64,000 nt of DNA from an uncultured Alphaproteobacteria bacterium. Lineage in GTDB: Bacteria; Electryoneota; RPQS01. Below the pieces are notes generated by a model, which searched no databases, was not told the origin of the DNA, and saw only the letters and a program-made list of their open reading frames with translations. Both the position numbers and the translations under genes were made by a program. The stretch spans positions 21,938 to 85,937 of the forward strand of contig CAZHAK010000007.1 of the NCBI GenBank assembly GCA_964530625.1. The letters run 5' to 3'. Positions 820 to 55,569 of this stretch are shown here, one piece after another; within the stretch, counting starts at the first letter, position 1; each line of letters starts with the position of its first letter.

Positions 820-3800
820 CTATTTCAGCAGCAAGAGCTTCTGCATGTGTGTTCCTAATGGAGATTCAAGCCGGGCAAAATAAACTCCCGTCGCAACTCC
901 CGCCGCGTTCCATGTGAAGCGATGCACACCTGCCGTGTAAAGACCGCTTGCTACAGTCGTTACTTCGCGGCCCGTGATGTCAAACACGCGCAGGCTCAAG
1001 TGAGCATTCTGCGGCAGTGAAACCTCCAAGGCCGTCGTCGGATTGAAAGGATTCGGATAAGCCGGTGCCAGCGCGTATTCCAGTGGCAATACGGATGGGT
1101 TCTCCGCATCAAGCTGTACCACATGAATCGTATCCGTCGCGATACTTTCGCCACCTTCGTACATCGCCGTCAGCCAGAAATAGTGTCCCGCGTCTCCGCT
1201 CGGAATACGTGTCCGGAACTCAAGTGCCGTTGTTGAAGCCAGCACGAACTCATTGATATGCACGATGTAACTCGAAAGTTCATCCAAACCACCGACGCTT
1301 TCCGGCGCGTCCCAGCTCATGAACAACGAATCGTTCGTGCGCGTGTATGTTAAATTTTGTGGGGGATCGAGTCGCCAGACTTCCGCGTCCGCCGACGTCG
1401 TCTGGCCCGCTACGACGGTTGCTTCTGCCGTGATAAACTCGTAACCCGGAATCTGCACACGCAACGTGCGCGGCCCGGCAAACACATCTTGTAGTGAGAA
1501 CGAGCCATTCGCAGCAACTTGCCCCATCCTGTTTCCAACTCTCACTCCGTTCGCAATTGCTTCTGAAATTGGCGGATGAGTCGTGATCGTACCGGTAAGA
1601 TTGCCCGTGCTGCGATCCAACGTACGTGTTGTAAACAGGATAGCACTGCCCTGCTGAATTGCAAATGAACTGTCATTTAACACTGTATTGTACTGCAATT
1701 GCAATCCGTATGTTTCAGTAGGACTCTCTATACCAACCGTCCCGCCGATCTGAATGTCCACATTGTCATAGACAAACATGATTTCACAATCACCCGTCGG
1801 CGTAGGCCAGACTTCCTGATCGAAAATGTGAATCTGTGCCGTCAAATGATTTGCCGTAATCGGCACGAAGTAAAGGTGATCGTATTCAATGATGAACACA
1901 CCGTTCGGTTGATCGTAGCGAGTCAGAATGCGGGAATCCACAGGATTCAAGCCGAGCACCAGGTTGTCCCAAAAGAGCGCCAACATTCCCGCCGGACCTT
2001 GTGGCGCAGGAATCGCTGTGTTCGCATTGCGGCGGTCAGGATCTTCGCCCGGAGCCACCCAGCCGTTTTCATTGACCGTGATGGAATCATACGCTCGCCC
2101 GTAAAAAACGAACGGAAACGGCATCTCGACAAACGACGACGCATCTGAAATTTGCGGAAACTCAAGCTCAGTCGCGTTCGTCATGTCTGCCCAATTGTAC
2201 TGGGCGGGCAAACCGTAATCATAGCGATCATAAGCACGGTAGCCGCTGCTGTCCGGCCCAACGCTTTGTGAGCGCGGCGTGGTGAACTGAATCAGAGCTT
2301 CTGTTGTATCGTTCGTCGCAACAAACAAAGTTGTCTCAGCTTGAAGTCCTTGAAACTCTACCACGAAGGAGTAGTTATTCTCACCGGGAAGCACAAAAGA
2401 AAACTCGCCGTTCTCATCTGTTTCCGTCGCTTCCACCGGTACAAACTGCGGAGTAACCGTCGCGAATTGCACTGGAATGGCATTGCCAATCTCAACGGTG
2501 CCCAGAAGAACTCCGCTGGGTACCAAAGACATGGCAATGTCAAGGACAACCGTATCCGAATCAGCTACCGAAAACTCGCTGTTGTATTGAGCGAATCCGA
2601 AAGCGCTGATCGAAAACGGCAAAAGCGAATCTGCAGGCAATGATATCCGGTAGTTTCCTTGAGCGTCGCTGTAGCGAATATAGTTGTCGCCCGCCTGCAC
2701 TCGCGCACCGGCTATCGGTTGACCGTTCGACTGATTGGTAATCTGACCAACCACCCAGCCGCGATCGGCTGATATCATGAGTACCGCTTCATAGGCGTCC
2801 ACCATGCCGCGACCATAGGTATTGTCGTCGCCAGCCGTGCCATAATCAATTGCAGTTTGCATCAGCACGGATTTGATTTCACGCACGTCCGCATTCGGAT
2901 TGGCTTCACGCATCAGAGCAACCACGCCCGCGATGTGCGGACCCGCCATCGAGGTGCCGCTGAAACTACCACTATAACCACCGGGGACGCTCGAGTAGAC
3001 ATTCTCGCCCGGCGCAACAATTTCCGGTTTGATTTGCGTGCCGTCACAGTCGCTCGGGCCACGACTCGAAAAACTTGAGATGGGATGCGGTACAGCCGGG
3101 TAATTTCCCGCATTCACCGACCCCACAGAAAAGAACGTCACTGAGTCAAGCGCAATGTTGGCCGGACTGCGGTGTGTTGCAGCGCCGGGGCCTTCATTAC
3201 CTGCCGAAAACGTCACAACTGTTCCCGCCGTTTCGCAAGCGATAATCGCGGTGTTCCAGTCGTTGAAACAATCGGGATATCCTAAACTACTGTAGACTCC
3301 CCAAGAATTCTGAATCACATCCGGCACGTCTTCAATAGTCTCTGGATTTTCATCCGGATCGGCAAACCACTGATAGCCTTGCAAGACATCACTGGTAAAG
3401 TCGCCGCCAAACCCGCCAATCGCATTCATCGCAATCCACTCCGCACCCGGAGCAACGCCAATGGTATCAAATTGAGAACCATTTCCACCTGTTCCGCAAA
3501 TTGTTCCCATTACGTGCGTACCGTGGCTTTGAGCATCTACGGGCGTTTGCGAGCCACCACCCAAAACGTCCAGCCAACACTCCGAATGCGGCGCGTGATT
3601 GCCGCGCCAACGACTGCCGAGCGCCACATGATTTCCGTCCACACCCGTGTCCATATTAGCTACCAAAACTCCCTCTCCTGTGTAGCCCAGTTCATTCCAG
3701 ACCCGCGGCGCATGCACGGCGTTCACACCCGGAGGACGCGAATCCAACGACTGCCGCTGTTCGCGTTCCGTGCTACGCACAGGTTCGATGAGCTCCATAA

Positions 3801-7378: not shown

Positions 7379-7386
7379 ATAAAACT

Positions 7387-14143: not shown

Positions 14144-14152
14144 AAATTCCTT

Positions 14153-23940: not shown

Positions 23941-24026
23941 GTTCTTCTCCGTGCAGTGTTTATGAAAATAGGAAATTGAATTGCGAATCTTTATCGCGAG
24001 GCAGGCAGTAGCGCCTGACGACAAAC

Positions 24027-38704: not shown

Positions 38705-40474
38705 TCACTGTGCTTCGAGTCGACCCTGCCGGTCCATCTCCTCGCGCACCTCCTGCATCAGCGGGGCAATCATCGCAGTCGAAAAATCAAACTGAATTCC
38801 CGCCGATTGATATAGCTTCGGCAAAGGCCTCGACCCGCCTAACGACAATCCGTGCTTGTAATCACGCAGCGCATCAGCTTTATTCTTGCGCGAACGACTC
38901 CAAATCTGAAACGCTCCCAACTGCGCAATACCGTATTCAATGTAGTAGAACGGCACTTCAAACAAATGCAACTGCGCATGCCAGCGATAATCGCGAGCCT
39001 CTTCAAAGCCAGTGTGATCCGCACCTGCGCCGAATTTCTCCACTAACCCGCGCCAATAGTTTCGTCGCTCGTCGCGTGTGTGAGTCGGATGAGTGTAAAT
39101 CCAATGCTGAAATGCGTCAATCGTGGCCACCCACGAGAGCAAAGCAATTCGTGCTTCAAGTTCTGTGCGAATCGTGCGCGCTTTGTCGGCTACAGAATAG
39201 AATTCATCCAGCACAGGCATAGCCAAGAGCTCCATGCTCATCGAGGCGACTTCCGAAAACTCCATCGGTGCGTGACGATAAGAATGAAGCGCTTCGTCCC
39301 GCACCGCGAAGGCGTGAAACGCGTGTCCCCCTTCATGCAGCAGCGTGAACACGTCATCGTTTGTCCCGACCGAATTCATAAAAATGAACGGCAACCGCAA
39401 TTCGGCCAAGTCGCTCTGGTATCCACCCGGAGCCTTGCCTTTGCGACTAGTAAGATCGAGCAAGCCAAGCTGGTTCATCCTGTCAAACTGCTCACCCAAC
39501 TCCTGATCTAATTTATGGAAGACCTGTGAGCATTTATCAATCAATTCATCCGATGTGCCGAACGGATGAAGAGGCGGGCGACCAAGCGGATCACAATCCA
39601 TATCCCACGGCTTTAAGGCCTCGACACCCAGAGCTTTCTTGCGATCCTCAGAAGCTTTGCGAAGCACTGGCACCACTAACTCTGCAACCGCAGAGTGATA
39701 AGACGCACAATCCTCCGGAGTGTAATCAAAACGCTCGTATTCGCGGAATTTGTAATCACGAAAATTATCGAAACCCGCGTTCAAGGCAATCTGATGCCGG
39801 ATGCGCAGCATCGCGTCAAAAATATCTTCTAAAGCGTCACGATCCCGCAAGCGCCGCTCTGCGACCAACCGATAAGCCTTTTGACGCACCGAGCGATCCG
39901 CCTCCTCAAGCAAGGCCAACGCGCGCGGAATGGTGATCTCCTGGCCCTTCCATTCAATCGTCATCGAGCCGAAGAGCTTCTGGTACTGCTGTGACAGCCG
40001 CTCAAGTTCGGTTTCCAGCGCGACATTTTCTTCCCGGTAAAGGTTCACCGCGTTTCTGCACGAGCGAAGATACACATCGTATTTCGGCGGCAGAGAGGAG
40101 GCAAAAGGACTCTCCACGAGTTTTCGGTTCAGCCTGTCCTGTGCTTCCTTTATTCTCGGAGAAATCTCCTCCACGAACGTCATAAAGGCATTTTCAGCTT
40201 CCACGTCATCCGTCGCGCACGTCATCGCAATGTAGCGACGCGAGGACTCCTCCGACATAAAGGCCGAAAGTTCGCTCCCGTCAGCAATCCATGCTTCCAA
40301 ATCGTCCGTATTCGCGATCTTGCGCTCCTCAAGATTTACGAAATAGGGTGCTACGTCATCCCAACCCTTCAAAACCAAGTCCGTCCCTAAAAAATGACGC
40401 GGAAACTCAGCTGAAGGCCGGCTGAGTTCCGCGACGCGATTTTCGATCGTCGGCATTCCTATCCACTCTCCCAA
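38705..40474 (-). CDS. pepF: M3 family oligoendopeptidase (PepF-like)
   Basis: The zinc motif is LLHEGGHAFHAF (HExxH). The 589-aa length and helical architecture match M3B, and there is no signal peptide. Confidence 0.8.
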   Translation of the reverse strand: MGEWIGMPTIENRVAELSRPSAEFPRHFLGTDLVLKGWDDVAPYFVNLEERKIANTDDLEAWIADGSELSAFMSEESSRRYIAMTCATDDVEAENAFMTFVEEISPRIKEAQDRLNRKLVESPFASSLPPKYDVYLRSCRNAVNLYREENVALETELERLSQQYQKLFGSMTIEWKGQEITIPRALALLEEADRSVRQKAYRLVAERRLRDRDALEDIFDAMLRIRHQIALNAGFDNFRDYKFREYERFDYTPEDCASYHSAVAELVVPVLRKASEDRKKALGVEALKPWDMDCDPLGRPPLHPFGTSDELIDKCSQVFHKLDQELGEQFDRMNQLGLLDLTSRKGKAPGGYQSDLAELRLPFIFMNSVGTNDDVFTLLHEGGHAFHAFAVRDEALHSYRHAPMEFSEVASMSMELLAMPVLDEFYSVADKARTIRTELEARIALLSWVATIDAFQHWIYTHPTHTRDERRNYWRGLVEKFGAGADHTGFEEARDYRWHAQLHLFEVPFYYIEYGIAQLGAFQIWSRSRKNKADALRDYKHGLSLGGSRPLPKLYQSAGIQFDFSTAMIAPLMQEVREEMDRQGRLEAQ

Positions 40475-40486
40475 AATTAAGTCCCG

Positions 40487-43234
40487 CTAACGATTCGCGG
40501 TGACAATGTAATAACCCAATGTGTCCAATTCAGTCAAATCCACAAACGTGGTTCCCGGAACCGTTCCCAAAATAACTGTGTTGAAAACTGTCGCGGGATA
40601 CTGTGTACCGCGCCAAACCGTATAGTTATTGGCACCCGCTACTGGCTCCCACGTCAATTGCATCCCGTTGTCAATCACCAAGACTGTGAGATCTTCCGGC
40701 GGCAATAGTCCTGATGCCAAGATACACACGTCATCAACCGCAGCCTCAACCAGCGACCCAAGCCCTTGATCCTGTGCTACGAACCGTAACCGCATCTGAC
40801 TGGTCAGTGGGACGAATTCTTCTACAATGAAAATACTGCGCCGCCACTCTTCCCAGTCAACACGCTCATGCAGCATGGACGTCCACGTTGTGCCGCCGTC
40901 ATTCGATATGTCAATATCAAAGTAGTCTTCGCCCGGATTGTTGCCATTGTCATTCGAGTACCAACTGTACAACTCAATCGCAACGTTGCTTTCTTCGCTC
41001 AAATCCCAAACAGGCGAGAGCAGCGTTGTTTTGCCGCCGTCCACGTCATTTGCGCCCGCAGATCCGCCCGCGAGTCCGCTTGTCACAAAACAATTCACAC
41101 CGCTTTCCGTATGATCGTTTTCCGGTTGGCAGACGTTGCCGTTTGTCTCAGTCTGTTCGGGGTCCATCCGATTCCAGATTCCGTTCGTGGCATTGTCTCC
41201 CGGCGCACCTACTGCCCAACCTTGATTATCTGCCTCGAAGTCATAACAGTACAGTTCCTGCGGCATGAAGAAATTCACCGTGGTATCTGCCGATAGCATC
41301 AGTGATTCTTGCACCGCGCCGCGAGTGCCAAAGGCCCGTAAAGTATACGTATTGCCCGTCGGCATCGTCAAAGAGTAAAAGCCTTCGGCGTTGGTCGTTG
41401 CAGGTGCTATGGGTGCGTCTAAAACTTCAACCAATGCATTGGGAATACTCTGACCACCTGAGGTGTAGACATGACCGGATACCACGCCCACGGGAGCCAA
41501 TGTCATCTGCACATTAAGTTCCGTGTCACCACCCTCAGTGATCATTACGTTGTCCATCGTTACGGGCAGATACCCGAATTTCGTAAACACCAAAGTGTAA
41601 GTTCCCGCGCTGGTGGCGATGGAATAGCCACCCGCCGCGTCCGTCAGATCGCTGCGACCGTTTTCAAGAATGGAGACGTCAACGTCCACAAGCGCATTCC
41701 CGGAAGTCATCACGACGCCGGAAACTCTTCCAAGGTTGAAGACTGCTGTAACTGCGGCGTATCCATCGATAAACCCAAATCCAAACGTATTGTCATTGCC
41801 GACGGATCCATACCCGGAATCAATGGCCGTGTTTATCAGTGCCTCTTTAATCGTAATCGGATCACAATCCGGGCACGCTTGACGCATCAACGCGACAATG
41901 CCCGCGACGTGCGGCCCCGCCATTGACGTTCCGCTATATGCTCCATTGTAACCGCCGCCGGGGACACTTGAGTAAACATTCACACCGGGTGCCACAATCT
42001 CGGGCTTGATATGAGTTCCGGCACAAGGGCTTGGACCGCGGCTGGAAAAACTCGCGATCGCATAGGGCGGTTGACTTGCCGCGGCGACTTCCACAGCGCC
42101 GACAGAAAACATTTGAACTTCACTCAGCGCGTGAATTGCCGGACTGCGATGCGTCGTGGCATTCGGACCTTCGTTACCCGCACTGAATGTAACAACACAA
42201 CCCAGAGCCTCAAGATTCACAATCGCCGTGTTCCAGAAATCCCAACATTGCGTGTAGCCAGGAAAATTCTGATTGACGCCCCAACTGTTTTGCACAATGT
42301 CCGGCACGTCGTCAATCGTTTGAGGATCGCCGTCCGGATTTGCAAACCACTGAAAGGCGTTGATTACGTCGTTGTTGAAGTCGTTGCTCACTCCTTGATC
42401 TATCGCGTTGCATGCAATCCACTCTGCGTCCGGTGCGCTCCCGACCGTGTTGGTATCATTACCGGAAATCGCGCGACCGCACATCGTGCCCATGACGTGC
42501 GTGCCGTGATTGTTGTCATCGGACGGAAAAGTCGTCGGCACGGCATTCAGCACATCCAGCCAACCCGCCGATGCCCCCGCCGTCAGTCCGCGCCAGCGTG
42601 AGGCCAATGCCGGGTGATTGCCGTCAACTCCGGTGTCCAGATTTGCCACCAGCACACCCTGTCCGGTGATTCCCAACTCTCGATTCACGCGCGTCGCACC
42701 GATTGCATTCTGACCCGGAGTCAATTGCTCCGTGTCCAACGGATTGCGACCCGGTCGGTGCATTTCATCGTCGTCCTCCGCAGGAGTGTCCCCGCGGATA
42801 GGCTCAATCAGTACTGCCTGAAAGTTTTCCGATAAAGCGCGAATATCACTGCGATGCCTCAGCGCGTTGAAAAACTCGGGTTTTGCGCTGACTACAAACA
42901 AATTCTCAATCCAGTAACCCGTATAGCCCTCAACCAGACCTGTCGCTTTTCCAGCGTCCAATTCGCCGATAAACTTCGGCTGAGTCTGCGCCGCGTTCGA
43001 GCGTAGAGCGTTGTAAACCTCCGCGTATCGCTGTGCGCGTTTTGCGCCCTGCGCATGTAGCGCGAGATCGAGCATCCGGATGTCAATCGGATTCTCTAAA
43101 ATCACGATGCCGGACACGAATTCGCCCGTGCCGGCAAAGCTAAGTTCAAGATCAAAATTCGGTGACACTTCCGCTGCCGGCGCAAACCCTGCGGCAAGTC
43201 CCAAGACGAGCGTTGCAATAGCCCAGTTCCTCAT
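40487..43234 (-). CDS. Secreted subtilisin-like S8 peptidase, a paralog of the 820-4221 gene, with a C-terminal FN3-like domain and no T9SS CTD
   Basis: Signal peptide MRNWAIATLVLGLAAGFAPA. The propeptide region GYTGYWIENLFVVSA is shared with its paralogs. Motifs: VLVANLDTGVDGNH, HGTHVMGTMCG, GTSMAGPHVAGIVALM. It ends with ...LTWEPVAGANNYTVWRG...GYYIVTANR. Confidence 0.85.
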   Translation of the reverse strand: MRNWAIATLVLGLAAGFAPAAEVSPNFDLELSFAGTGEFVSGIVILENPIDIRMLDLALHAQGAKRAQRYAEVYNALRSNAAQTQPKFIGELDAGKATGLVEGYTGYWIENLFVVSAKPEFFNALRHRSDIRALSENFQAVLIEPIRGDTPAEDDDEMHRPGRNPLDTEQLTPGQNAIGATRVNRELGITGQGVLVANLDTGVDGNHPALASRWRGLTAGASAGWLDVLNAVPTTFPSDDNNHGTHVMGTMCGRAISGNDTNTVGSAPDAEWIACNAIDQGVSNDFNNDVINAFQWFANPDGDPQTIDDVPDIVQNSWGVNQNFPGYTQCWDFWNTAIVNLEALGCVVTFSAGNEGPNATTHRSPAIHALSEVQMFSVGAVEVAAASQPPYAIASFSSRGPSPCAGTHIKPEIVAPGVNVYSSVPGGGYNGAYSGTSMAGPHVAGIVALMRQACPDCDPITIKEALINTAIDSGYGSVGNDNTFGFGFIDGYAAVTAVFNLGRVSGVVMTSGNALVDVDVSILENGRSDLTDAAGGYSIATSAGTYTLVFTKFGYLPVTMDNVMITEGGDTELNVQMTLAPVGVVSGHVYTSGGQSIPNALVEVLDAPIAPATTNAEGFYSLTMPTGNTYTLRAFGTRGAVQESLMLSADTTVNFFMPQELYCYDFEADNQGWAVGAPGDNATNGIWNRMDPEQTETNGNVCQPENDHTESGVNCFVTSGLAGGSAGANDVDGGKTTLLSPVWDLSEESNVAIELYSWYSNDNGNNPGEDYFDIDISNDGGTTWTSMLHERVDWEEWRRSIFIVEEFVPLTSQMRLRFVAQDQGLGSLVEAAVDDVCILASGLLPPEDLTVLVIDNGMQLTWEPVAGANNYTVWRGTQYPATVFNTVILGTVPGTTFVDLTELDTLGYYIVTANR

Positions 43235-43263
43235 TATCTTCCTCGCTAGTTAGGAGATGCTAT

Positions 43264-45792
43264 CTATCTTTCAGACACTACAAAAAAGTACTCCGGCCCG
43301 GTCAAATCCACCGTCGTCAGATATTCGATGTTCGCGGTCGTGCCGATCAGCGTCGAGTTGCCAATGGTTGGAGGCCAAATCTCGCTACTCCAAACTGAAT
43401 AGTGATCGGCGTTGTCAGCTGCCGACCAGCGCAAATGCGCGTCGCCGTTCTCGATTGAAATGGTCAAGTCGTCAACCGCCAACGGAACGAGGCTCTCGCT
43501 TGCGTCTATTGTCACCGGCACACTCAGCACCGGAGTGATCGAATCATTCGAGTTGAGCCTCAGCGTGGCCAGCGACGGTCCCTCTGGTAAACAGCACGAC
43601 GACAATCTCAGCGTAACAATCTGCTGTCCGCCTATCGCTACACTTCCAGAAACCGGGATCGTCTGCACCGCCGGTTCCGGACAAAACTTGATTGCCAGAT
43701 TGTTGGCGATAAATGCGCCGTTGTAGATCACAGCCGTTCCCTTTGTCCGGTCGCTGTTCTGCATTCCGATCGTCGCAGACTCAAGGCGGTTCACGCCCAT
43801 ATTGCCGTACTGATACGTCACCGAACCGTCGGCTGTCAAAATCATTTCGAAATTGTAGACGCCGCTGCCCGAATAGCTCTGTACGTTCTGGAATGACACG
43901 ATAAACGAATCCACGTTGTTCGTCCAACGGCGCACGTTGGTTCCCGCGCGCTGCGGGCTCAAATCATCCCACCAACAAGCAAGAATGTTCTCTGGTGCAG
44001 TAATGCTCGGCAGTTGCGTATTGCTGTAAGACGTCGCACCGGTAGCCGTGGATGTAAATGAAATCCATCCGTTTGCCGCGACACGCACTTGCGAATAGCT
44101 ATCACCGTAAAACGGAAAACTGAATCCGATCGCATACGGGCCAAGATTTTGATCGTCCTGCGTAAACGACACCTGAGTGCCGACGGTGCTGATATCAACC
44201 CAAGCGTAAGCCGGGCCGCCCGTCACACGACTGTCAATCCACCTCCCGCCGCCAATACTTGCACCATAGTCTGTCATGTTAAAATCGAGTTCGTTCGAAT
44301 TCCATGTCAATTCGGCGTCGCCATTGTTCTCAATAGTCAAGTTCACGTCGTAGGTATCGCACAACGGAACGATTTCTGAGAAATTTGCGGGAACCACCGC
44401 AATCTCAGCACGAGGAGCGGGATTCAATTGAATATTCAATACCGTCGGAGTGCCGCCAACTACGGTTACGTTGTTAACGGTCTGACCGATAAAACCCGGA
44501 GCGGTGAACGTCAAAGAATACGTTCCCGGTCGCAGCATCCGGAAGTAGTCGCCGTGCAAAGCCGTGCTATAGGTCAAGTAGGGAATATTCGCCAACATGA
44601 CGTTCGCCCGAACTGGATGACCCGTTGAAGCATCTGTTATAATTCCGCGCACGCCCTCGCGAGCCTGCTGTAAGTAGTTGATCATTGCTTGACGATTCTC
44701 GTTCCACAAACTATCCAGCGCGCTTTCGGGGCCGGACTTCGTATGTGAAACCTCCATTGTCACTTCTTTGCAGCCCATCCAGACGTAGTTCCAATCCTGC
44801 ATTCCGCCGTTCACATGATACCAATCCGCGCCATTGGTCGTGCCGTCCGGTGGAAATTGATTGCTGCCGAACATCGTCGGATTTTCCTGCGCGTACACCA
44901 ACGAAATATGATAGAAGAGCGCGTTCTCAGGCGAGGGAGAAAAGATACTCTGACCCGTGTAATTGCTGTCCCACGGGTAGTTTGCGACGATTGTTCCCCC
45001 GTGAAAATTCGCCGAGATAACGAAGGTTCGTGTCGCCGAAAAATTCATCACCGCCGCAGTTTCGGCTTCCCGGCCGGTCGTCGTATTCGTCGAGTCGTTC
45101 ACACGATCCGGGAAATCCCGGTTCAAGTCGATCCCGTTCGCGTTAAATCTTTGACCCAACGACCCCACGTCGCGTCCGTCGGGATTCATCAACGGCATAA
45201 TGTATATTTCAAAGTCATTCACGAGGCCTGTCAATTCCGGATCAATGCCGTAGCCCGTAAGCAGCGTATCGATCAGTTTCATGCAATTCTCAAGCCCGGT
45301 CACTTCATCCCCGTGCATCGAAGAAATGTACTTTACTTCGATTTCCGGTTCATCCACCCCGACGTTATCGGAAACTTTTGCCATCAGCATCGGACGCCCC
45401 TGCACACTATTGCCGATGTTCTGCCATGAAAACAGAGTCGGATAAGCCGCAGCCCAGGCGATAAAATCGGCCTGAATATCCGCATTCTCGTGGTACTCAT
45501 CCAAACTTCCGTGCTCAACGCGTTCTTCCGGCAGCCAGCGTACCGAAAAGCCACGCGCGCGCAGCGCATCAAAATCCTCCGGAAGCAGATAAACATGCGG
45601 CACCGGTCCCCTATAATGATCAAAAATACCACCCGCATCTTGAATCAACTGCGCGTCCAGCGGAGACTTGATTTCAATCTCGGCCAATCTTGAATTCAAC
45701 ATGTTCTTCTTCACGGGTCGCGCTTGAGGCGCGACTGCTATGACAAAACATGCGACTATTACTAATAACAACTGATACGTTCGTAGCATCAT
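43264..45792 (-). CDS. Secreted M14 family zinc carboxypeptidase with C-terminal beta-sandwich and FN3-like domains
   Basis: The start is at the internal Met (MMLRTYQLLLVIVACFVIAVAPQA). YISSMHGDEVTG is the HxxE zinc site. NFHGG holds the third zinc His. It has a long C-terminal extension. Confidence 0.8.
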   Translation of the reverse strand: MMLRTYQLLLVIVACFVIAVAPQARPVKKNMLNSRLAEIEIKSPLDAQLIQDAGGIFDHYRGPVPHVYLLPEDFDALRARGFSVRWLPEERVEHGSLDEYHENADIQADFIAWAAAYPTLFSWQNIGNSVQGRPMLMAKVSDNVGVDEPEIEVKYISSMHGDEVTGLENCMKLIDTLLTGYGIDPELTGLVNDFEIYIMPLMNPDGRDVGSLGQRFNANGIDLNRDFPDRVNDSTNTTTGREAETAAVMNFSATRTFVISANFHGGTIVANYPWDSNYTGQSIFSPSPENALFYHISLVYAQENPTMFGSNQFPPDGTTNGADWYHVNGGMQDWNYVWMGCKEVTMEVSHTKSGPESALDSLWNENRQAMINYLQQAREGVRGIITDASTGHPVRANVMLANIPYLTYSTALHGDYFRMLRPGTYSLTFTAPGFIGQTVNNVTVVGGTPTVLNIQLNPAPRAEIAVVPANFSEIVPLCDTYDVNLTIENNGDAELTWNSNELDFNMTDYGASIGGGRWIDSRVTGGPAYAWVDISTVGTQVSFTQDDQNLGPYAIGFSFPFYGDSYSQVRVAANGWISFTSTATGATSYSNTQLPSITAPENILACWWDDLSPQRAGTNVRRWTNNVDSFIVSFQNVQSYSGSGVYNFEMILTADGSVTYQYGNMGVNRLESATIGMQNSDRTKGTAVIYNGAFIANNLAIKFCPEPAVQTIPVSGSVAIGGQQIVTLRLSSCCLPEGPSLATLRLNSNDSITPVLSVPVTIDASESLVPLAVDDLTISIENGDAHLRWSAADNADHYSVWSSEIWPPTIGNSTLIGTTANIEYLTTVDLTGPEYFFVVSER

Positions 45793-45808
45793 TTCACCTG
45801 CTCTAAGT

Positions 45809-46633
45809 TTAGTCAACCCCGGCGTTCGAATGCAGTTCAATCCACTCGCTCCATGAACCCGGATATAGTTTCAAATCTGTGTAGCCGGCTTGATCCATTG
45901 CCCATAACAATTGGCAAGCCGTCACACCCGACCCGCAGTAGGCCGTGACGGCTTGCTGATCATGCACACCTAATCTTTCGAAAGCCTCACGCAATTCAGT
46001 CTTGCTCTTCAGTTGCGGAGGATCGCCCGTCATAAGCTCCGAAAGCGGCATGTTGCTCGCGCCTTCAATGTGCCCTGCGCGTTTGTCAAGCGGCTCGATC
46101 TCGCCTTGATAACGTTCTGAGGCACGTGCGTCAAGTACGGCTTCTCCGGCTGCGATACTTTGCGCAACAGCACGGGCATCCACCATCAACTCTTCCCGCA
46201 GTCGAATCTCAAACGGAGCCACGGAAGAAACTGCTTTCTCTGCAGTCTCGACTGCGCGTCCTTCCGCCTTCCACTTGGCAAATCCCCCATCCAGCACGGC
46301 CACGTCATCAACGCCAATCCACCGAAGCAGCCACCACAGCCGCGCGGCCAGCTTAAAGCCCTTTGCTTCCGTACAAATAACGCGCCTGCCCTGCCCAATT
46401 CCCTTGCGAGCAAGTCGCTTAACAAGCTCTTCAGGAGTCGGGAGTGGATGACGGCCCTTGGAAAAATCTCCGACTTCCGACAGATCCAAATCCACATCCA
46501 CAAACACCGCGTTTGGAATGTGGCCCTCCAAATAGCTTGCGTACGCCGCCTTTGGATCCATGTGAACCCAGCGTATATCGGCAATCACAATCCCGGGATC
46601 ATTGATGTACTCGGCCAGCCAGTCCGTCGTCAC
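45809..46633 (-). CDS. sseA: 3-mercaptopyruvate/thiosulfate sulfurtransferase (tandem rhodanese domains)
   Basis: The active-site loop is YCGSGVTACQL. There are two rhodanese domains. A GTG start at 46633 gives MTTDWLAEYINDPGIVIADIRW, a typical SseA N-terminus. The longer ORF in the track (to 46990) overlaps the upstream beta-helix gene and is rejected. Confidence 0.75.
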   Translation of the reverse strand: MTTDWLAEYINDPGIVIADIRWVHMDPKAAYASYLEGHIPNAVFVDVDLDLSEVGDFSKGRHPLPTPEELVKRLARKGIGQGRRVICTEAKGFKLAARLWWLLRWIGVDDVAVLDGGFAKWKAEGRAVETAEKAVSSVAPFEIRLREELMVDARAVAQSIAAGEAVLDARASERYQGEIEPLDKRAGHIEGASNMPLSELMTGDPPQLKSKTELREAFERLGVHDQQAVTAYCGSGVTACQLLWAMDQAGYTDLKLYPGSWSEWIELHSNAGVD

Positions 46634-46644
46634 AATCTGTGTCG

Positions 46645-49600
46645 TCAAGGCTGCGGCTCTGCCAATACTTGAAAGAATCCCTTCACCGGGTGAACCGGGC
46701 CAATAAACTGAAAAACTGTAAAGGTGTCCGTCGTTATCACGACGGTCGAGAGAAAACTCCCGCTCATGCTCGAGTCCGTCTTGACTGTAAACAGAGCCGG
46801 AACATTGTAGCTCCAATGCAGCCACACGCTGTCCGAATTCGCGCGAATCATCAAGTCCTCGATCGGCGCAAGCGGTTCGCCAAGCTGCGGACCGTGATAC
46901 CCCTGATCGGGTCTGGATATGTCTGCGATGAAATCGATGCGAGTCGTTCCTTCCGGAGCAATCAACAGCGTGTCCCCGGCATTCACACACGGAGATTGCA
47001 CGCTATCTCCCGTCGAAAGCTGCGCCAAATAGAATCCGTGACCCGATCCGCTCACCCACTGGGGATCCAATTGAATGTTGTAGTAGCGGTCACACGGATC
47101 ACTGTTCGAGTTCAAGCTGTCCAATATGCCAATACTCGCCGGCCCCTGATTAGGGGTGTCCGCAAAGAATGCGAAATTCGCGGAGTCATTCTGCGCCACG
47201 CAATTGTAGCGTACGACAGACGTCGATGTCACGAAGAAAAACATCCCGTCGCCGTGATTCTTGGCGATGATATTGTTCTTCACCTGCGGGGAGCCAAAAC
47301 GAATGTAAACTCCCGCGCCATCCACTCCACTGTTTCCTGAAATCGTGTTGAACTGGAGCGTTGCGCTCGCGCTGCCCACCCATATCGCGCCGCCCGCAGG
47401 TGCGCTGTTATTCAAAAGCAAATTATTCCTGACAAGCGTGGGTGACGTGTCCAAATGAATTCCGCCCCCTGTTGCAGAAGCGGAATTCCCTTCAATCCTG
47501 CTATTCAAAATCTGCCCGGTCGCACTCTTTGCCAAAAGTGCCCCGCCTGCCTTCGCAGATCCGCCTGCCATCACGCAATCGTCAATAATCGGATTGGAGT
47601 TCGTTGCCGCACAAACTATTCCGCCCGAGTCGGCAGAACTGCTTGAGAGAAAACATTCCGTAAATACTGGCGAAGACTGTGTCAGATAAACCGCGCCGCC
47701 CTGCAACGCTTTGTGCCGCGAGATCGAGCAATGAACGAACGACGGTGAAACACCGCTTAGCCAAATCGCTCCGCCCTGTGTCCGTGAAGTTGTCAGGGCC
47801 CACGAGTCACTCCAACCGACATAGTCAAAAGCGCTCGCTCCGGCGCTACCGCTCATGGTAATCCCACGCCAGCGACCCGGATTGCTCACGGTGTCTGTAG
47901 CAAACAAAATAGAATCTGAAACGTTTCCTATCGCAGTTACAACCCCCTTAACATCCATGCCGCATGGACCACAGAACAATAACGTGGTTCCCGCCGCAAT
48001 CGTCAAATCTTCCCCCGTATTCACGACGATATCCGCGAAGACTTTCACGGTATCGGGTCCAAGAGTACCTGATTGCGGTCCGAAAATTCCTACTGGCGAA
48101 ACTCCAAACGCACTCTCAATCGCGCCCATATCCGGCAAGCTTAAGAGTGGCAGAGGTCTATTCTCCCCGACAATGTCTTGTGCCAAGGTGTTCCAATTCC
48201 CCGAACCTATGGCAGAGCTGTTCGCACTCAAACTCCAGTCACCGTTTGCCGTATCAGCAAACATCGGATCTGAAAATACATTCAAGAATGTGTCACAGGA
48301 ATCGCCGTTCATGTTTTGAGCCACCGGAACCCCGATAAACTCAGGACCCTGCGCAGCATCGTTCTCCAAATAACCTATTGTTCCCCTTAAAAGTGAATAC
48401 GCAATCCGCGAATTCTTAGACGCACCAAAATACACATTATTGCTCGTCGACTCCGCGATGATGGAATTCTCAATATCTGCAACGGTGGATTCAAGTCGCA
48501 ACCCGCCATTAATGCTGCCGCCGATCGTGCAATGCCTGAGCGCAATCTTACTGCTATTGGCCGTCGCAAGCCCGCCTCCCAACGCCAACGATTTATTCTT
48601 CGTAATCAGGCAGTTCGTGGCCGAAAGTGTGCTCTGATTCGTCGAAATCCCGCCGCCGTTCAAAGTCGAAGTATTCTTCAATATCTCGCATGAGTTAAAC
48701 ACCGCATCCGCAGTTTCCCACAGATGCACACCGCCGCCCTCGTCACTGGCTTGGTTCCAGCGAACCCGACATCCGTTTAACGTCGGCTGTGATTGTCGAA
48801 TGGAGAGGCCGCCGCCGTTGCCCAGACTTGTGTTGCTGTCAAAATCACAATTTGTAAAGATCGGGTGCGCATTGTTTCGCAAGAACACACCACCTCCGTA
48901 AAGCCCTGCCGTGTTCTGCTTCACCACACAATTATTAAATGTCGGTGCGCCGTCTAACGTGACCCAGATTCCCGCGCCTTCGCCGACGCAGATATTGCCG
49001 CGCACTTCACACTCTTCAAACAGCCCGTTAGAGGTCGCTCGGTAGCTGTGAATCCCTCCGCCGTCATCTGCTGACGTATTCATCAAGACCTTGCACCGCA
49101 GCATATGCGGAGAGGATTCCCAAATGTAAACTCCGCCTCCGTCAAACTCAATAGTGTAGTTCCGCTCGATCAAACAATCGTAAATCAGAGGAGAAGAATT
49201 CTCACAAACAATGCCACCCCCATGACCGCGTCCCTGATTGGCTCGCATCGTCGAACTGTCAATCCGCCCTGTGGAATTTTTAAACACCAACCCTCCGCCG
49301 TTTATTCTTGCAAAATTGCTGTCAAACAAACAATGAGACAGTTGTGGTGAACCTCCGCGCAAATAAGCCCCGCCGCCGCTGCCGGAACTTGCGCTATTTT
49401 TGAAGAATCGCGAATACGTAACCACGCTGCCAATGGTATTATTTAGGAACAGCCCCGCGCCTTCGGCACGAGATACATTCCGTTCAAAGAAGCAGGAATC
49501 CATCCACAGAGTTGAGGATGTCACATACACTGCCCCACCGGCGACTTCCGCGCGATTTCTCCTGAAACTCGTGTGTTCAACTCGCAGAACGGATCCCCCA

Positions 49601-50031
49601 CCAACATAAATTGCTCCACCTAAACTATCCGGACCCGTTGGACCGGGAGCCAGCGAATTCTCAAACACCGCATAGCGCACGAAGCTCGAGTCATTGGCGT
49701 TAATTAAACTCAACCCACGCCACTTGGAAGGATTCAGAAGCGTGTCGGTCGTAAAAACTGCCGAGTCCCCTAGCGTTCCACTCACGGCAAGATAGCCATT
49801 GACAGTCAGCGAAAAAGCGCCCGCAAAATATATTCTGACCCCTGAGCCAACCAGCAGACTATCGCTTGCGGCAACACTGAGATTTCCTTGAACAACATAA
49901 GGACTTCCGGCACTCGTCCAACTTCCGCTGACAGGACCCGACACCACAAAGGTCGTATCCGCCCGCGCAGCCAGCACGCTGACCAAGAAACTCAGCGTCC
50001 AAAAAGTGAATGGTTTACCCGGGAATCTCAT
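46645..50031 (-). CDS. Large secreted right-handed parallel beta-helix repeat protein (pectin-lyase-fold), 1128 aa
   Basis: Signal peptide MRFPGKPFTFWTLSFLVSVLAARA. There are dozens of PbH1-type repeats (NxxxxGGGI/GGAI...N....). The C-terminus is FN3-like. Confidence 0.7.
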   Translation of the reverse strand: MRFPGKPFTFWTLSFLVSVLAARADTTFVVSGPVSGSWTSAGSPYVVQGNLSVAASDSLLVGSGVRIYFAGAFSLTVNGYLAVSGTLGDSAVFTTDTLLNPSKWRGLSLINANDSSFVRYAVFENSLAPGPTGPDSLGGAIYVGGGSVLRVEHTSFRRNRAEVAGGAVYVTSSTLWMDSCFFERNVSRAEGAGLFLNNTIGSVVTYSRFFKNSASSGSGGGAYLRGGSPQLSHCLFDSNFARINGGGLVFKNSTGRIDSSTMRANQGRGHGGGIVCENSSPLIYDCLIERNYTIEFDGGGVYIWESSPHMLRCKVLMNTSADDGGGIHSYRATSNGLFEECEVRGNICVGEGAGIWVTLDGAPTFNNCVVKQNTAGLYGGGVFLRNNAHPIFTNCDFDSNTSLGNGGGLSIRQSQPTLNGCRVRWNQASDEGGGVHLWETADAVFNSCEILKNTSTLNGGGISTNQSTLSATNCLITKNKSLALGGGLATANSSKIALRHCTIGGSINGGLRLESTVADIENSIIAESTSNNVYFGASKNSRIAYSLLRGTIGYLENDAAQGPEFIGVPVAQNMNGDSCDTFLNVFSDPMFADTANGDWSLSANSSAIGSGNWNTLAQDIVGENRPLPLLSLPDMGAIESAFGVSPVGIFGPQSGTLGPDTVKVFADIVVNTGEDLTIAAGTTLLFCGPCGMDVKGVVTAIGNVSDSILFATDTVSNPGRWRGITMSGSAGASAFDYVGWSDSWALTTSRTQGGAIWLSGVSPSFVHCSISRHKALQGGAVYLTQSSPVFTECFLSSSSADSGGIVCAATNSNPIIDDCVMAGGSAKAGGALLAKSATGQILNSRIEGNSASATGGGIHLDTSPTLVRNNLLLNNSAPAGGAIWVGSASATLQFNTISGNSGVDGAGVYIRFGSPQVKNNIIAKNHGDGMFFFVTSTSVVRYNCVAQNDSANFAFFADTPNQGPASIGILDSLNSNSDPCDRYYNIQLDPQWVSGSGHGFYLAQLSTGDSVQSPCVNAGDTLLIAPEGTTRIDFIADISRPDQGYHGPQLGEPLAPIEDLMIRANSDSVWLHWSYNVPALFTVKTDSSMSGSFLSTVVITTDTFTVFQFIGPVHPVKGFFQVLAEPQP

Positions 50032-50902: not shown

Positions 50903-51385
50903 ATGAAAAAGATTACTTTGATTATTCTTCTCGCCTTGCCTTTGGCTCTTTGGGCAAATCAACCTGTCCAAAAAGGTGAGCGCTACGACGACGCGGTGAT
51001 CGTAGACAAAGCTCCGACCGGAAGCTCAACCGAAGCTCGTGTTGACGACTTGGCGGGCGAACCAGTCACGACTATTCTGCAGCCCGAGTTTCAAGAGCTT
51101 GAAGACCGCTACGCGGAACAGTTGAACCAACTCCGTGCGCAAATTGAGCTGGCCGCGCCGGATCAGCAGGAAGCACTCGAACTTCAAGCCGTTGCGCTAA
51201 AGCAAGAACTTGAAGGGGCCAGACTTGAAACCGTGTTAAACTATGTTCGCGCACAGGGCAACACTGACGCAGAAAAGCGCGTGCTGGAAGCGATTCACAA
51301 CTATCAGAATCCGACCCCGGTACAGAGAGTGAGCGTTGAACGCGATCCGAAAACCGGTGCTGAGAAGAAGGGAGTTTCGCGATGA
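50903..51385 (+). CDS. Small secreted alpha-helical protein of unknown function (paralog of the previous gene)
   Basis: ATG at 50903 follows GGGAGGG. Signal peptide MKKITLIILLALPLALWA. The C-terminal motif LETVLNYVRAQGNTDAEKRVLEA matches the motif in the upstream protein. Its stop overlaps the next start (ATGA). Confidence 0.6.
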   Translation: MKKITLIILLALPLALWANQPVQKGERYDDAVIVDKAPTGSSTEARVDDLAGEPVTTILQPEFQELEDRYAEQLNQLRAQIELAAPDQQEALELQAVALKQELEGARLETVLNYVRAQGNTDAEKRVLEAIHNYQNPTPVQRVSVERDPKTGAEKKGVSR

Positions 51386-54300
51386 ATAGGCTTTTTCTCT
51401 TTCTAGCGATACTTCTTATCACCGTCAGCGCGAATGCCGCAACTGATTCGCAATCGGAGTTTGTGCGCGATGCTCAAAATGAATGGGTGCCCGAGCCCCC
51501 GACACGAGATTTCTCAAAGCGCATTGTCTTTGACAAATATGTGTGGGAAGAAGGAGTTGACCCCAAAGCACGCTTCCTCAATTTGCTCATGGTGAAGTTC
51601 TTCGATGAAGACACTGTGCGCCTGCGTGACGGCCAGTTGACTTCGTTGACGGGACGCGATATTTCTTTTACGAAATCCTTTCTTGCCCGCCATCCCGAAA
51701 TCTCGCCCCGCGTGATTATATGGAACAAAACTGAAGAAAAATACATGGCAAATCTCGCCCGCATCGAGAAGAAGTCGGGCTGGGATTTGGTTGACCTTTT
51801 CAGCTTCTATTGCTTCGAATTGCCGGAAGCACCCGCTGACGCGCAAGCGTTGATCAGCGAGATTCTCGATGCTCCCGAGGTCGAAACCGCTTATTACGAG
51901 CCGATTCCCGTGGATTTCTTGTGTCAAGATCTCGGGAACACGACACCAAACTTCCGCCCCAACCAAACATATCACGATGCTGCCCCTGTTGGTGTCGACT
52001 TAGATTGGGTGTGGGCAGAACATATTGATGATGTCGTGGACGGACCCGGCACAGGTCGTTGGACTGGAATCTTTGAGCGCGGACTCCAAACCACACACGA
52101 AGACTTCACCTTAGCTGAAGTGGCCACAGCTGGCACGCCTGATTCAGACAACGATCACGGAACGGCTGTGACAGGGTTGCTGGGCGCCTGCGATGATAAT
52201 GGGGTTGGTTGTATTGGTTTTATGGCCGATCAGAGAATGAGGCTCTATCAACGGAATTCAGGCTCTTACGGTTCCACGGCTGATATTTACAATCTAGCCA
52301 ATGGGCAACTGGTTTCTGGTGAAGTCACGAACTCATCATGGGGCTACACGGCAAATCCACTCCCTCCGGGACAAACATGTCCTTGCAATCCAGGTCAAAA
52401 CGGCTCAGTACCCATTGAGTATTCAGCAAGTGTTAAGGCAGAAGTTCAGGCGGGCGTTGCAGATGGTATTCACTACTTTCTGTCCGCAGGGAATGGATGC
52501 ACGAACCTTGATGACGCGACTTTTGGAACAACCTTCAGAAATTCCACAGACACAGGATCAAACTACGTCTCCGCAATCCAGTCTGCGGCTGGCCACAATG
52601 CATCCTGCTTTACGTGCTTTGGCGAGCGCTGTGACCTGAACGCATGGGGCGATGGGAGTTTTACGCTGGGCTATAATTCCGACGGTACTCCGTTTGTACC
52701 GGCATCCCAGGACGAGTGGTACACGAACGGATTCAATGGAACATCGAACGCCTCCCCGACCGTTGCCGGCTGTGCAGGCGTCATTCACAACGTGGTCAAC
52801 TATTATACCGGATCGACGCTGTCCACTTCGTTGATGCGAAACTATCTCAATAACTACGGTACCGCACCAGGCACGACTCCGGGGAATATCGGTGTCATGC
52901 CGAATCTCTTCGGAATCATGTCGGCTAACCTGAATCCCGATTTCCGCACTGGTTGGACCTGGTATATGGTGCCGAGAAGTACAGGAGGTGCGACAGCGGA
53001 CAACTGTCTTATCACCGCGAACTTAAGCCCCGACCCGTCACTTACCTATTGGAATGCCGCTGCGGAGAACGAAGCGGTTATCGGCTGGGGAACTCCGGCG
53101 GCGTACAGAATTTATTTAGACGACGTGTGGGAAATCGGCTGGGTGGACGGAAACGACACTTTGCATGCGCAAGAAAGAACTTACGGCATTAATGCTAGTA
53201 CTACCGTTCGCGGTGGTCGCCACTTTGTTCGCCTGACCGTTGATCCACTTGATCAAGTTGATGAATGGGTTGAAACCGACAATAGCGAACACAATCAATG
53301 GGTCTGGAACCCCCGCCAATTTACGAACGGCCAGATCCTAACCTTGTCTTCGCCTCCGATAAAGTATGCTACAGACCAGCTCTCCGAGGGTTTCTCATAT
53401 CCCAATGTGGATGGCTATGGTGGCGAAAACTTTCAATTCGATGGATACTGGGATATCATGATGGTGATGGCCCAATCTTCAACTGCAGATTACGACGCAC
53501 GTATCTACAGCGAAGATGTCACCTCGACAAACGGATTTGACGACACCGAAGCCTCCTCTGCGTACGTTTCGTTCAGCGATTTCGTAGGCGTCAACAACAA
53601 TGTCGCCGGTCAGTCTCAAGAATTGATTGCCGCTGTGCTTAATTATGACGGTGAATCTTCACAGCATCGTGTGGAGTGCGGAACTTCCACAATCCTTAGC
53701 CCCAGCACGCCCGGCATCGGCCGCACCTCCTATGGCTCGCATAGCTTAACGTCCACGGAGCTCTTTGATGTCTGGGAATTCTATGTTAACGAACTTGTTC
53801 CTTACAACATTGAAGTTGACGTCACCTCCGGAAGCGCAAACGTTGTCGTTTCTATTTACGGACCGGACGACACCTTCTTCAGCAGAGGCAACTTCAATGC
53901 GCAGTCAAACTCCGGCGGTGCGGGCGAAGACGAAATGATCTCCTGCTGGACACCCAACGCCATAGGCTGGCACGCCATCGTCGTGCACAAGCATAACTAC
54001 CTCGATTGGGATGAAACGGCTAACTTCAATCTTTACGTAGGTAAAGCAGGATTTGACTTCGTTCACACTTTAGGTACGGGTTGGTCGCACAGTTTGGTTG
54101 TAAGACAGGTTGCTGGTGGGCAGCCTGCAGTTCTGCCTGCATCTTTGACGGGCAACATTGCGACGAACTATGTCAACATCATGGCTTTGAATCAAGGCTG
54201 TACTGCCGCTGTTGCGTCTTTGGATGACCGCGTCTTTCGTGACGGACCGGCCGTTGGAACCTTTGCCAACTGGAACGGGGCAATTGTGCCGGGAGGCATG

Positions 54301-55569
54301 GCCTTCGGTTCAAATCGCAATATCGGCACTGTCCCCGGTGGCCGTCACCAAATCGGCAACGTCATTGATATTCTTAATGAAGGGCCGGAATGGGACGAAA
54401 CTAACAATCGCTACGACGAACAATTCGTTTGGACGCCTGCTCTGTTGACCAACAATGTGATGTTCAACTCGCTAAACACGGCCCCGAACTGGCGCGATTT
54501 CGATGCAACCTTGTTCTTCCCGGACTACAACGTGGACGGCTTCCGTTTTACAGGCGGTGGATTCTGGAGCGGCGTTGGCATGACTCCCAATAACACCGTT
54601 GAGGACGTATATAACTTATTCCTCTACGACCCGGCAACGTCTTCTACATCCGGGTTCGGAACTCGCTTGGTGAACTCCTGGTCAGCTGGCGCTGACGTCG
54701 AATGGGTCATTGAGAACGGTAGCCAAATCGCCAATGAAACCTTTGATGTCGGCGTTCACAACAACACCGCCTGGCCGAATGACACGTCTCTCTCCACCTA
54801 CCGTCTGCAGCAATCCAACAGAATTCAAGACCTGAATGTTGGACAATTTCACGGCGAATTCCCCTTCCCCAGCACTCAGATTATCAACGTGTTTGATCTC
54901 AATCTGACCTCTGGAGTGAGTACGGATATTCTCTTGGATAACCGTGGAACAGGTGATCTTGGATTTGCAATCTACAATCCGAGCATGCTCTATGGAAGTC
55001 GCACGACGTACACCCAATTGATTAACTTGAATGGCGACGCCGCGGATGAAGCGACAACATTTGTCCCGACTCAAACGGGCCGACATGGATTTGTGGTCTT
55101 TAAGAATGATCGCAGTGATCTGGGAGCAAATCCTTATGCGCTGGTCATCGGTGAACGTACACCAAGAGCACCGGACTCACTGGTCATCAAGTGGGCCTCA
55201 AGCTCTCCGATTTCCGTGGAATTGACGTGGGCGCCTGTGACCCAAGACATTTTCGGGCAACCAATCACGGTCGACCGTTATGACATTTACTTCACGTATA
55301 ACCTTAACGCGCTCTATCCGGCGGGTTGGGGTTTCGGTGGTTCAACCTTAGATAACACGCAAGTGCCGATTTTCCCGAATGATGCGGAGTTCGGCTTCAA
55401 GTGTCTCTTCTTGGCTGTTGACACCGATGGCTTGATCGTCGGAGGATCTGACCTGCCCGAAGGAGCCACGTCGGTCATAGGTCAAAGAGCGGAAGATGTC
55501 CGCAATGCTGCAGGATGGCACGAGAATATTCTTGTCCCACAGTCAGAACGCGTGAATTCGATTCGCTAA
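51382..55569 (+). CDS. Giant secreted kexin/subtilisin-like (S8) protein with three CARDB-like repeat modules and a C-terminal FN3-like domain; Glu sits at the predicted catalytic Asp position
   Basis: Signal peptide MNRLFLFLAILLITVSANA. His motif DNDHGTAVTGLLGA. Oxyanion YFLSAGNGCTN. Ser motif NGTSNASPTVAGCAGV. The Asp-box position reads GTGRWTGIFERG (Glu instead of Asp). Repeats occur at VDEWVETDNSEHNQWVW, LDWDETANFNLYV and GPEWDETNNRYDEQFVW. Confidence 0.65.
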   Translation: MNRLFLFLAILLITVSANAATDSQSEFVRDAQNEWVPEPPTRDFSKRIVFDKYVWEEGVDPKARFLNLLMVKFFDEDTVRLRDGQLTSLTGRDISFTKSFLARHPEISPRVIIWNKTEEKYMANLARIEKKSGWDLVDLFSFYCFELPEAPADAQALISEILDAPEVETAYYEPIPVDFLCQDLGNTTPNFRPNQTYHDAAPVGVDLDWVWAEHIDDVVDGPGTGRWTGIFERGLQTTHEDFTLAEVATAGTPDSDNDHGTAVTGLLGACDDNGVGCIGFMADQRMRLYQRNSGSYGSTADIYNLANGQLVSGEVTNSSWGYTANPLPPGQTCPCNPGQNGSVPIEYSASVKAEVQAGVADGIHYFLSAGNGCTNLDDATFGTTFRNSTDTGSNYVSAIQSAAGHNASCFTCFGERCDLNAWGDGSFTLGYNSDGTPFVPASQDEWYTNGFNGTSNASPTVAGCAGVIHNVVNYYTGSTLSTSLMRNYLNNYGTAPGTTPGNIGVMPNLFGIMSANLNPDFRTGWTWYMVPRSTGGATADNCLITANLSPDPSLTYWNAAAENEAVIGWGTPAAYRIYLDDVWEIGWVDGNDTLHAQERTYGINASTTVRGGRHFVRLTVDPLDQVDEWVETDNSEHNQWVWNPRQFTNGQILTLSSPPIKYATDQLSEGFSYPNVDGYGGENFQFDGYWDIMMVMAQSSTADYDARIYSEDVTSTNGFDDTEASSAYVSFSDFVGVNNNVAGQSQELIAAVLNYDGESSQHRVECGTSTILSPSTPGIGRTSYGSHSLTSTELFDVWEFYVNELVPYNIEVDVTSGSANVVVSIYGPDDTFFSRGNFNAQSNSGGAGEDEMISCWTPNAIGWHAIVVHKHNYLDWDETANFNLYVGKAGFDFVHTLGTGWSHSLVVRQVAGGQPAVLPASLTGNIATNYVNIMALNQGCTAAVASLDDRVFRDGPAVGTFANWNGAIVPGGMAFGSNRNIGTVPGGRHQIGNVIDILNEGPEWDETNNRYDEQFVWTPALLTNNVMFNSLNTAPNWRDFDATLFFPDYNVDGFRFTGGGFWSGVGMTPNNTVEDVYNLFLYDPATSSTSGFGTRLVNSWSAGADVEWVIENGSQIANETFDVGVHNNTAWPNDTSLSTYRLQQSNRIQDLNVGQFHGEFPFPSTQIINVFDLNLTSGVSTDILLDNRGTGDLGFAIYNPSMLYGSRTTYTQLINLNGDAADEATTFVPTQTGRHGFVVFKNDRSDLGANPYALVIGERTPRAPDSLVIKWASSSPISVELTWAPVTQDIFGQPITVDRYDIYFTYNLNALYPAGWGFGGSTLDNTQVPIFPNDAEFGFKCLFLAVDTDGLIVGGSDLPEGATSVIGQRAEDVRNAAGWHENILVPQSERVNSIR

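Follow-up and report, generated by a model that had tools for sequence, protein, structure and literature searches.

A trimmed, strictly terminal fibronectin type III domain in secreted enzymes of an uncultured bacterium

In a stretch of 64,000 nucleotides from an uncultured bacterium (contig CAZHAK010000007.1; hereafter the window), three minus-strand genes encode secreted proteins of unrelated families that end in the same kind of domain, a fibronectin type III (FN3) fold that stops directly after its strand F. The genes are co-oriented and make up the flagged span (positions 40487-50031): S8b (40487..43234; 915 aa), a peptidase of family S8; M14 (43264..45789), a carboxypeptidase-D-like enzyme; and BH (46645..50031; 1128 aa), a beta-helix protein of the NosD/Beta_helix repeat type. 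Each carries a Sec-type signal peptide without a lipobox, as read directly from the N-terminal sequence. By Pfam, the signal peptide is followed in S8b by Peptidase_S8, two CarboxypepD_reg domains and a MAM-like region, and in M14 by Peptidase_M14, CarboxypepD_reg and a NIDO-like middle region, before the FN3 tail is reached. The tails lie at 40490..40708 in S8b (aa 843-915, LLPPEDL...YYIVTANR), at 43267..43491 in M14 (last 75 aa, that is aa 784-858 of the listed open reading frame (ORF), LVPLAVDDL...EYFFVVSER) and at 46648..46872 in BH (last 75 aa, LAPIEDL...GFFQVLAEPQP), all on the minus strand and each followed by the stop codon. The FN3 domain itself is known; the novelty lies in a variant that is conserved, trimmed, strictly terminal and so far unannotated. 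On balance, this tail is probably an ordinary bacterial Fn3 domain cut to its six-strand core, which would act at the C-terminus of Sec-exported enzymes in an accessory or docking capacity; the likeness between the S8b and M14 copies would derive from an old exchange or from a shared partner.

Likeness of the tails and their fold

The sequence-only reading that drew attention to this region had proposed a common C-terminal module in S8b, M14, BH and a fourth protein, the kexin-like S8 protein KEX (1395 aa; 51382-55569, plus strand), encoded outside the flagged span. For S8b and M14 this was borne out, since their tails (~73-75 aa) are 29% identical over 83 aa (E 5e-11, with a database of five sequences) and the S8b tail scored 65.1 bits against a profile made solely of M14-orthologue tails. 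With this M14-only profile, S8b and its orthologues reached 59-70 bits, against a median of 25 and a maximum of 48 bits for 2,328 generic FN3 repeats taken from the top array proteins. Additionally, the nearest non-orthologous relatives of the S8b tail in BLASTP were the M14 tails (58 bits, 39% identity), the tails of other S8 subfamilies scoring 36 bits or less. Judged by sequence, the S8b and M14 tails form a specific FN3 subgroup.

The likeness of the BH tail was confirmed only at the profile level. By hidden Markov model (HMM) search of the single sequence it was weak (9-10 bits, E 0.007 within the window), rising to 20.9 bits with an iterated profile. However, when the tails of four BH orthologues (the window copy and those of three syntenic loci; alignment A2) were compared by hhalign with an alignment of 39 tails (A1, S8b first and the remainder M14 orthologues), a probability of 96.5% and an E-value of 7.8e-10 were obtained, with the alignment colinear to both C-termini. 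BH carries a divergent copy of the tail, detectable only by profile-profile comparison. The proposal failed for KEX, in which the FN3-like stretch pointed out earlier (55162..55449, plus strand; aa 1261-1356) is followed by 39 further aa, gave no HMM match to the tail profile and reached only 2% in hhalign against it; its membership is unconfirmed. An AlphaFold model of the KEX tail, built from the single sequence only, was uninformative (pLDDT 49.5). The motif DLT[IV]x[IV]...L[RT]W...A[DN]xY[ST]VW, which had been attributed to all four proteins, was found in its strict form in S8b and M14 and is absent from BH and KEX; in its relaxed form, DLT...LxW...AxxYxVW, it reads as a generic bacterial FN3 signature of strands A, B and C.

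At the DNA level, the tail-coding segments have in common nothing beyond chance 9-12-mers, and recent gene conversion between them was therefore rejected. The tail alignment contains no conserved stretch of 7-10 columns, and a word-indexed protein search with the S8b tail alone as query returned zero candidates. It was also observed that the M14 protein of this genome is present at 100% identity in the protein collection, in which the best S8b match is just 70% identical. Given this figure and the empty tail search, the exact S8b protein seems to be missing from the protein index, although a Logan contig (L001) encodes it.

The FN3-like fold suggested for the tail was upheld by structure prediction. 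AlphaFold, run on A1, modelled the tail with confidence (pLDDT 91.5) and placed in it strands A, B, C, C', E and F only, and in a Foldseek search with this model nearly all of the top 50 matches listed were FN3 domains. The beta-sandwich topology of FN3 is present, as is its conserved core (Trp in strand B, Tyr in strand C, Tyr/Phe-Tyr in strand F); the invariant columns of A1 are L, L, W and Y, and FYxVxS/A closes strand F. FN3 domains have seven strands (A, B, C, C', E, F, G) and the tail model has six. By sequence, the best structural matches of the tail profile were 3MPC and 5G56 (E 9e-10), and among 1.84 billion representative proteins it retrieved 44,383 matches at E <= 1e-3, of which the best 150 are giant proteins with 7-44 tandem copies called fn3 (PF00041) by Pfam. 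The tails themselves do not reach the gathering threshold of PF00041: Pfam gave no fn3 match to any of them even at E <= 10, NCBIfam gave none either, and more than 100 database homologues bear no precomputed fn3 annotation. Although the curated model misses them, FN3 homology holds, because the tail profile retrieves PF00041 arrays and Fn3 domains of the PDB. The tail therefore belongs, as a bona fide and ordinary member, to the bacterial FN3 superfamily, where it shares a subclass with the Fn3 domain of CtXyl5A. Since Pfam and NCBIfam both miss it, the ends of large secreted proteases of uncultured bacteria of the Fibrobacteres-Chlorobi-Bacteroidetes (FCB) group are at present annotated as ~75 aa of nothing. 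A tail-specific model would give an annotation to the C-termini of well over a hundred of the proteins encountered in this analysis, and probably to many others.

Trimming and distribution of the ending

The tails end 0-2 aa past the end of the profile, directly after strand F (...YYIVTANR, ...YFFVVSER, ...GFFQVLAEPQP), with zero residues beyond it in S8b, and the stop codons that follow were confirmed for the window copies as well as at six further loci. By comparison, complete FN3s extend 13-21 aa further, those that end a protein continuing for 15-21 aa past the profile end, and the repeats of tandem FN3 arrays recur every 88-93 aa (median 91), against a tail length of 73-78 aa. Because the tails stop at this point, the FG loop and the G strand are absent from them. 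The trimming point is identical in all three families (S8, M14 and BH), which leaves a six-strand core of two sheets, A-B-E and C'-C-F, with the chain ending one residue after F, usually in Arg.

The closest known relative, the Fn3 domain of Clostridium thermocellum CtXyl5A (PDB 3MPC and 5G56), is internal, located between CBM13 and CBM62-dockerin, and continues for ~19 residues past F, whereas the tails described here are the last domain and stop after F. This Fn3 was described as "primarily" two three-stranded sheets, and its function was described as unclear (PMC5063996). Given that 3+3 description, the trimming is less dramatic than it sounds, and by analogy the six-strand core may be self-sufficient. 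The PF00041 arrays of large bacterial surface proteins are homologous to the tails over strands A-F and provide the top profile matches; their repeats, unlike the tails, are complete (period ~91 aa), internal and multi-copy. An Ig-like sandwich missing its last (G) strand also recalls the pilins of chaperone-usher and type V systems, but no chaperone, usher or pilin gene was found among the window ORFs scanned, nor was an N-terminal donor extension identified.

The distribution of the ending was assessed in the best 120 homologues each of M14 and S8. Among the M14 homologues, a trimmed FN3 stands at the end of 83 and nearly so in three more, while the remaining 34 are mostly eukaryotic carboxypeptidase D. 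The 120 S8 homologues comprise 33 with a trimmed FN3 at the end, 37 with a complete terminal FN3, 44 with a type IX secretion system (T9SS) C-terminal sorting domain (CTD) and about five fragments. The 37 complete domains bear 13-24 extra residues, similar to an FG loop and G strand. In total, the module stands at the extreme C-terminus of ~116 homologues across several architectures. More than 100 homologues, down to ~35% overall identity, preserve its length, its end point and the invariant core residues L, L, W and Y. S8b orthologues at 58-70% identity retain the tail, and a genome may contain several copies, as is the case for three proteins (P0281, P0297, P0334) encoded on one 1.93-Mb contig labelled 'Calditrichaeota'. 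A scan of genome contigs with full-length S8b returned only two planctomycete loci, which were matched through the MAM-like middle region and not through the tail. In one Planctomycetota homologue of this region (L006, 3961-6756), dockerin-like repeats (DxNxDGxxNxxD) occupy the terminal slot in place of an FN3 or a CTD, and so add a third kind of module there.

The window offers its own comparator for the CTD-bearing forms in S8a (820-4221), an S8 paralogue outside the flagged span, whose T9SS type A CTD (823..1089, minus strand; aa 1045-1133) scored 35.2 bits against TIGR04183 (cut-off 23) and 25.9 bits against Por_Secre_tail. In CTD-bearing S8 homologues of ~1150 aa, S8a included, the CTD is immediately preceded by a complete FN3-like domain (1117..1371 in S8a, minus strand; aa 951-1035). 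The block had been put forward as the equivalent of the tail. It is probably FN3-like, since a family profile of the pre-CTD domain from CTD-bearing S8 homologues (A3) matched A1 in hhalign at 80% (E 1.4e-5). It is, however, only a distant relative that keeps its FG loop and G strand, and the S8a block alone reached 3% in hhalign and a Pfam fn3 E-value of 0.01, below threshold. In fact, a tail-type FN3 was detected by HMM in none of the 44 CTD-bearing S8 homologues, nor in S8a. Terminal FN3 and CTD are alternative endings within one family, never both kinds in one protein, which is suggestive of a sorting or attachment role. The three-way alternation within a single protease family provides a handle on how enzymes without a CTD are localised in T9SS-bearing bacteria.

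Possible roles of the tail

In the reading considered probable, the tail would be a non-catalytic domain that closes Sec-exported enzymes of an uncultured lineage in the FCB group, with relatives among metagenome-assembled genomes (MAGs) labelled Calditrichaeota or KSB1. PPC (PF04151), PKD and P-domain are non-catalytic C-terminal beta-sandwiches of secreted bacterial S8 peptidases and metallopeptidases. The tail may act as a C-terminal accessory 'foot' in the manner of such PPC, PKD or FN3 extensions; with PPC, PKD and P-domain the analogy is functional, as the sequence families differ and no Pfam match to any of the three was obtained. It could be a folded domain for docking or solubilisation, binding a substrate, a partner protein or some component of the envelope, a cleavable export signal being a less likely role. 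Because the S8b and M14 tails are unusually alike and their genes are adjacent in a conserved cluster, their likeness may stem either from a domain exchanged long ago between these genes or from a common binding partner that holds both enzymes together. Several findings fit this account poorly. No part of the M14 orthologues is less conserved than the tail (38% mean pairwise identity, compared with 57-64% elsewhere), which would fit a spacer as well as a specific docking module. Within the ~1300-aa S8 architecture both trimmed and complete FN3 endings occur, some orthologues having the G strand and others lacking it, so the exact trimming point may not matter. Nearly every bacterial homologue without a CTD ends in FN3, and there is a strong preference for Lys or Arg as last residue; both go beyond the obvious needs of a passive accessory domain and leave room for a role in localisation. 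Should the tail be an accessory domain and no more, the present findings would amount to a useful annotation note only.

It is doubtful, though a real possibility, that the tail is instead a C-terminal localisation signal used in place of the type A CTD, either as an unrecognised class of T9SS cargo or as a tag for surface anchoring, in which a strand from an outer-membrane or surface partner would complete the open edge at strand F. What invites this idea is the strict position of the tail at the extreme C-terminus of Sec signal-peptide proteins in three unrelated enzyme families, a position that CTDs also hold, together with the exclusive CTD, complete FN3 and trimmed FN3 endings of the S8 homologues and the dockerin-like repeat found in the same slot of the planctomycete homologue. 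Those matches that bear a name belong to FCB candidate phyla, and cargo with a T9SS CTD is encoded close by. Like the tail, the type A CTD is a beta-sandwich of ~70-90 aa at the extreme C-terminus of Sec-exported FCB enzymes, occupies the same slot in S8 proteins and usually ends in Lys or Arg. Nevertheless, the tails have no sequence match to it and no PxGxY or K-x-x-x-K type motifs, and their fold relatives are FN3 domains rather than CTDs. S8b, M14, BH and KEX gave no match to the type A models TIGR04183 and PF18962, full proteins gave none to the type B model TIGR04131 in the NCBIfam scan, and no NCBIfam sorting-domain model of any kind matched the tails. Signals for sortase, exosortase or rhombosortase (LPXTG, PEP-CTERM, GlyGly-CTERM) are likewise absent, the tails being beta-strand domains without a hydrophobic helix and without an NCBIfam match. 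The suggestion that a sortase- or exosortase-like partner gene might accompany the module found no backing, as no T9SS component, sortase or exosortase gene was found among the window ORFs scanned and no T9SS gene, sortase or other partner was found in the loci of the conserved cluster. Literature searches brought up no account of a trimmed FN3 at the C-terminus acting as a sorting signal. The homology of the tail to ordinary internal FN3 repeats and the varying presence of the G strand among orthologues also speak against a signal.

The last residue itself was counted in each class. It is Arg in 58 of the 83 trimmed M14 tails and Lys or Arg in 62 of them; the corresponding Lys/Arg figures are 31/37 for S8 proteins with a complete terminal FN3 and 43/49 for those with a CTD or other ending, against ~6/29 for the other window genes. 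This bias favours a localisation signal, but shared descent confounds it. In most homologues with an FN3 tail or a CTD, the final residue is Arg or Lys (the C-termini in the window lie at 40490 in S8b, 43267 in M14, 55566 in KEX and 823 in S8a). Members of the eukaryotic carboxypeptidase-D-like group remove C-terminal basic residues; that the adjacent M14 enzyme trims such basic ends here is pure speculation. The most specific form of the localisation idea, in which the tail would be a new module of Calditrichota/KSB1-like FCB bacteria (a third T9SS signal class, or a docking tag with its F edge completed in trans), interchangeable with the type A CTD and co-localising M14 and S8, is rather improbable. 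Even so, the tails are a lead, if a modest one, on how proteins are localised in T9SS-bearing candidate phyla.

It had also been suggested that the tail could be the penultimate domain of former T9SS cargo. In such a relic, an FN3 plus CTD arrangement like that of S8a would have lost first the CTD and then the G strand, so that a functionless stump was left. The pre-CTD FN3-like domain of the ~1150-aa S8 homologues, its remote relationship to the tail by hhalign and the faster evolution of the tail relative to the catalytic domains are what such a history would leave behind, but this reading is quite unlikely, considering that no CTD-bearing homologue has a tail-type FN3, that the S8b tail is closest to the M14 tails and not to those of other S8 proteins, and that length, core and end point are maintained across so many homologues. 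Moreover, no decayed CTD sequence follows the tails, and there is no room for one, since the gaps from S8b and from M14 to the next gene are only 12 and 29 bp. It is just as unlikely that the genes have no specific link and share no more than chance or generic FN3 similarity. The motif does correspond to strands A-B-C of common bacterial FN3s, as the tens of thousands of profile matches attest, and KEX and S8a are without a significant match; yet the S8b score on the M14-only profile exceeds that of every generic repeat scored, the trimming point is the same in all three families, and the module ends ~116 homologues. Generic similarity alone is already contradicted for S8b, M14 and BH, and is the best description for KEX. 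The accessory or docking domain thus remains the preferred account of the tail.

Gene neighbourhood and other observations

A rhodanese gene sits between BH and M14, and the order rhodanese, M14, S8, M3 oligopeptidase (window 38705-46990) is kept in four MAG loci (L002, L007, L008 and L009), one of them labelled Calditrichaeota, although the proteins of this cluster are only 58-77% identical across MAGs. Such conservation suggests a co-expressed peptide-degradation unit. A small, conserved OMP_b-brl protein is encoded five genes downstream. Syntenic orthologues of BH are present in three of the four loci (L002, L007 and L008). In L008 (GCA_016703065.1), the BH gene is split into parts of 736 and 336 aa (5746-9146) and the S8 gene into parts of 160 and 733 aa (12609-15289), which reflects either frameshifts (pseudogenes) or assembly errors. 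The genome of the window was found in Logan assemblies, such as SRR34646270, and its close relatives are MAGs of the activated-sludge type.

Regarding the start of M14, the mechanically listed ORF (43264-45840) begins with TTG at 45840, and the database gene call begins 17 codons later. The true start is probably the Met at 45789, directly ahead of a typical signal peptide, since an identical database protein of 841 aa (P0001, gene call in L001) begins there.

In close relatives, the position of KEX is taken by an unrelated protein of ~1635 aa with NIDO/MAM/BACON-like domains and a T9SS Por_Secre_tail (505-5412 in L002; 504-5405 in L007), and the locus beside the sensor kinase is therefore variable. 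Besides the proteins discussed above, the window is unusually rich in proteases: it encodes a third S8 paralogue, S8c (61855-64000, plus strand), which has S8, CarboxypepD_reg and a MAM-like region and extends past the window end, as well as a fifth subtilase (22075-24024), an S9 peptidase (31213-33123) and the M3 peptidase. Just upstream of S8a lies a MacB/Lol-like cluster (6686-11784) consisting of an ABC ATPase, an unannotated ORF, a LolA_like protein and two FtsX permeases. Finally, the GC skew is about -0.12 over minus-strand genes (1-26 kb and 32-50 kb) and about 0 over plus-strand genes (26-32 kb and after 50 kb); a replication origin at ~50 kb, as the switch might indicate, was rejected because the skew tracks gene orientation.

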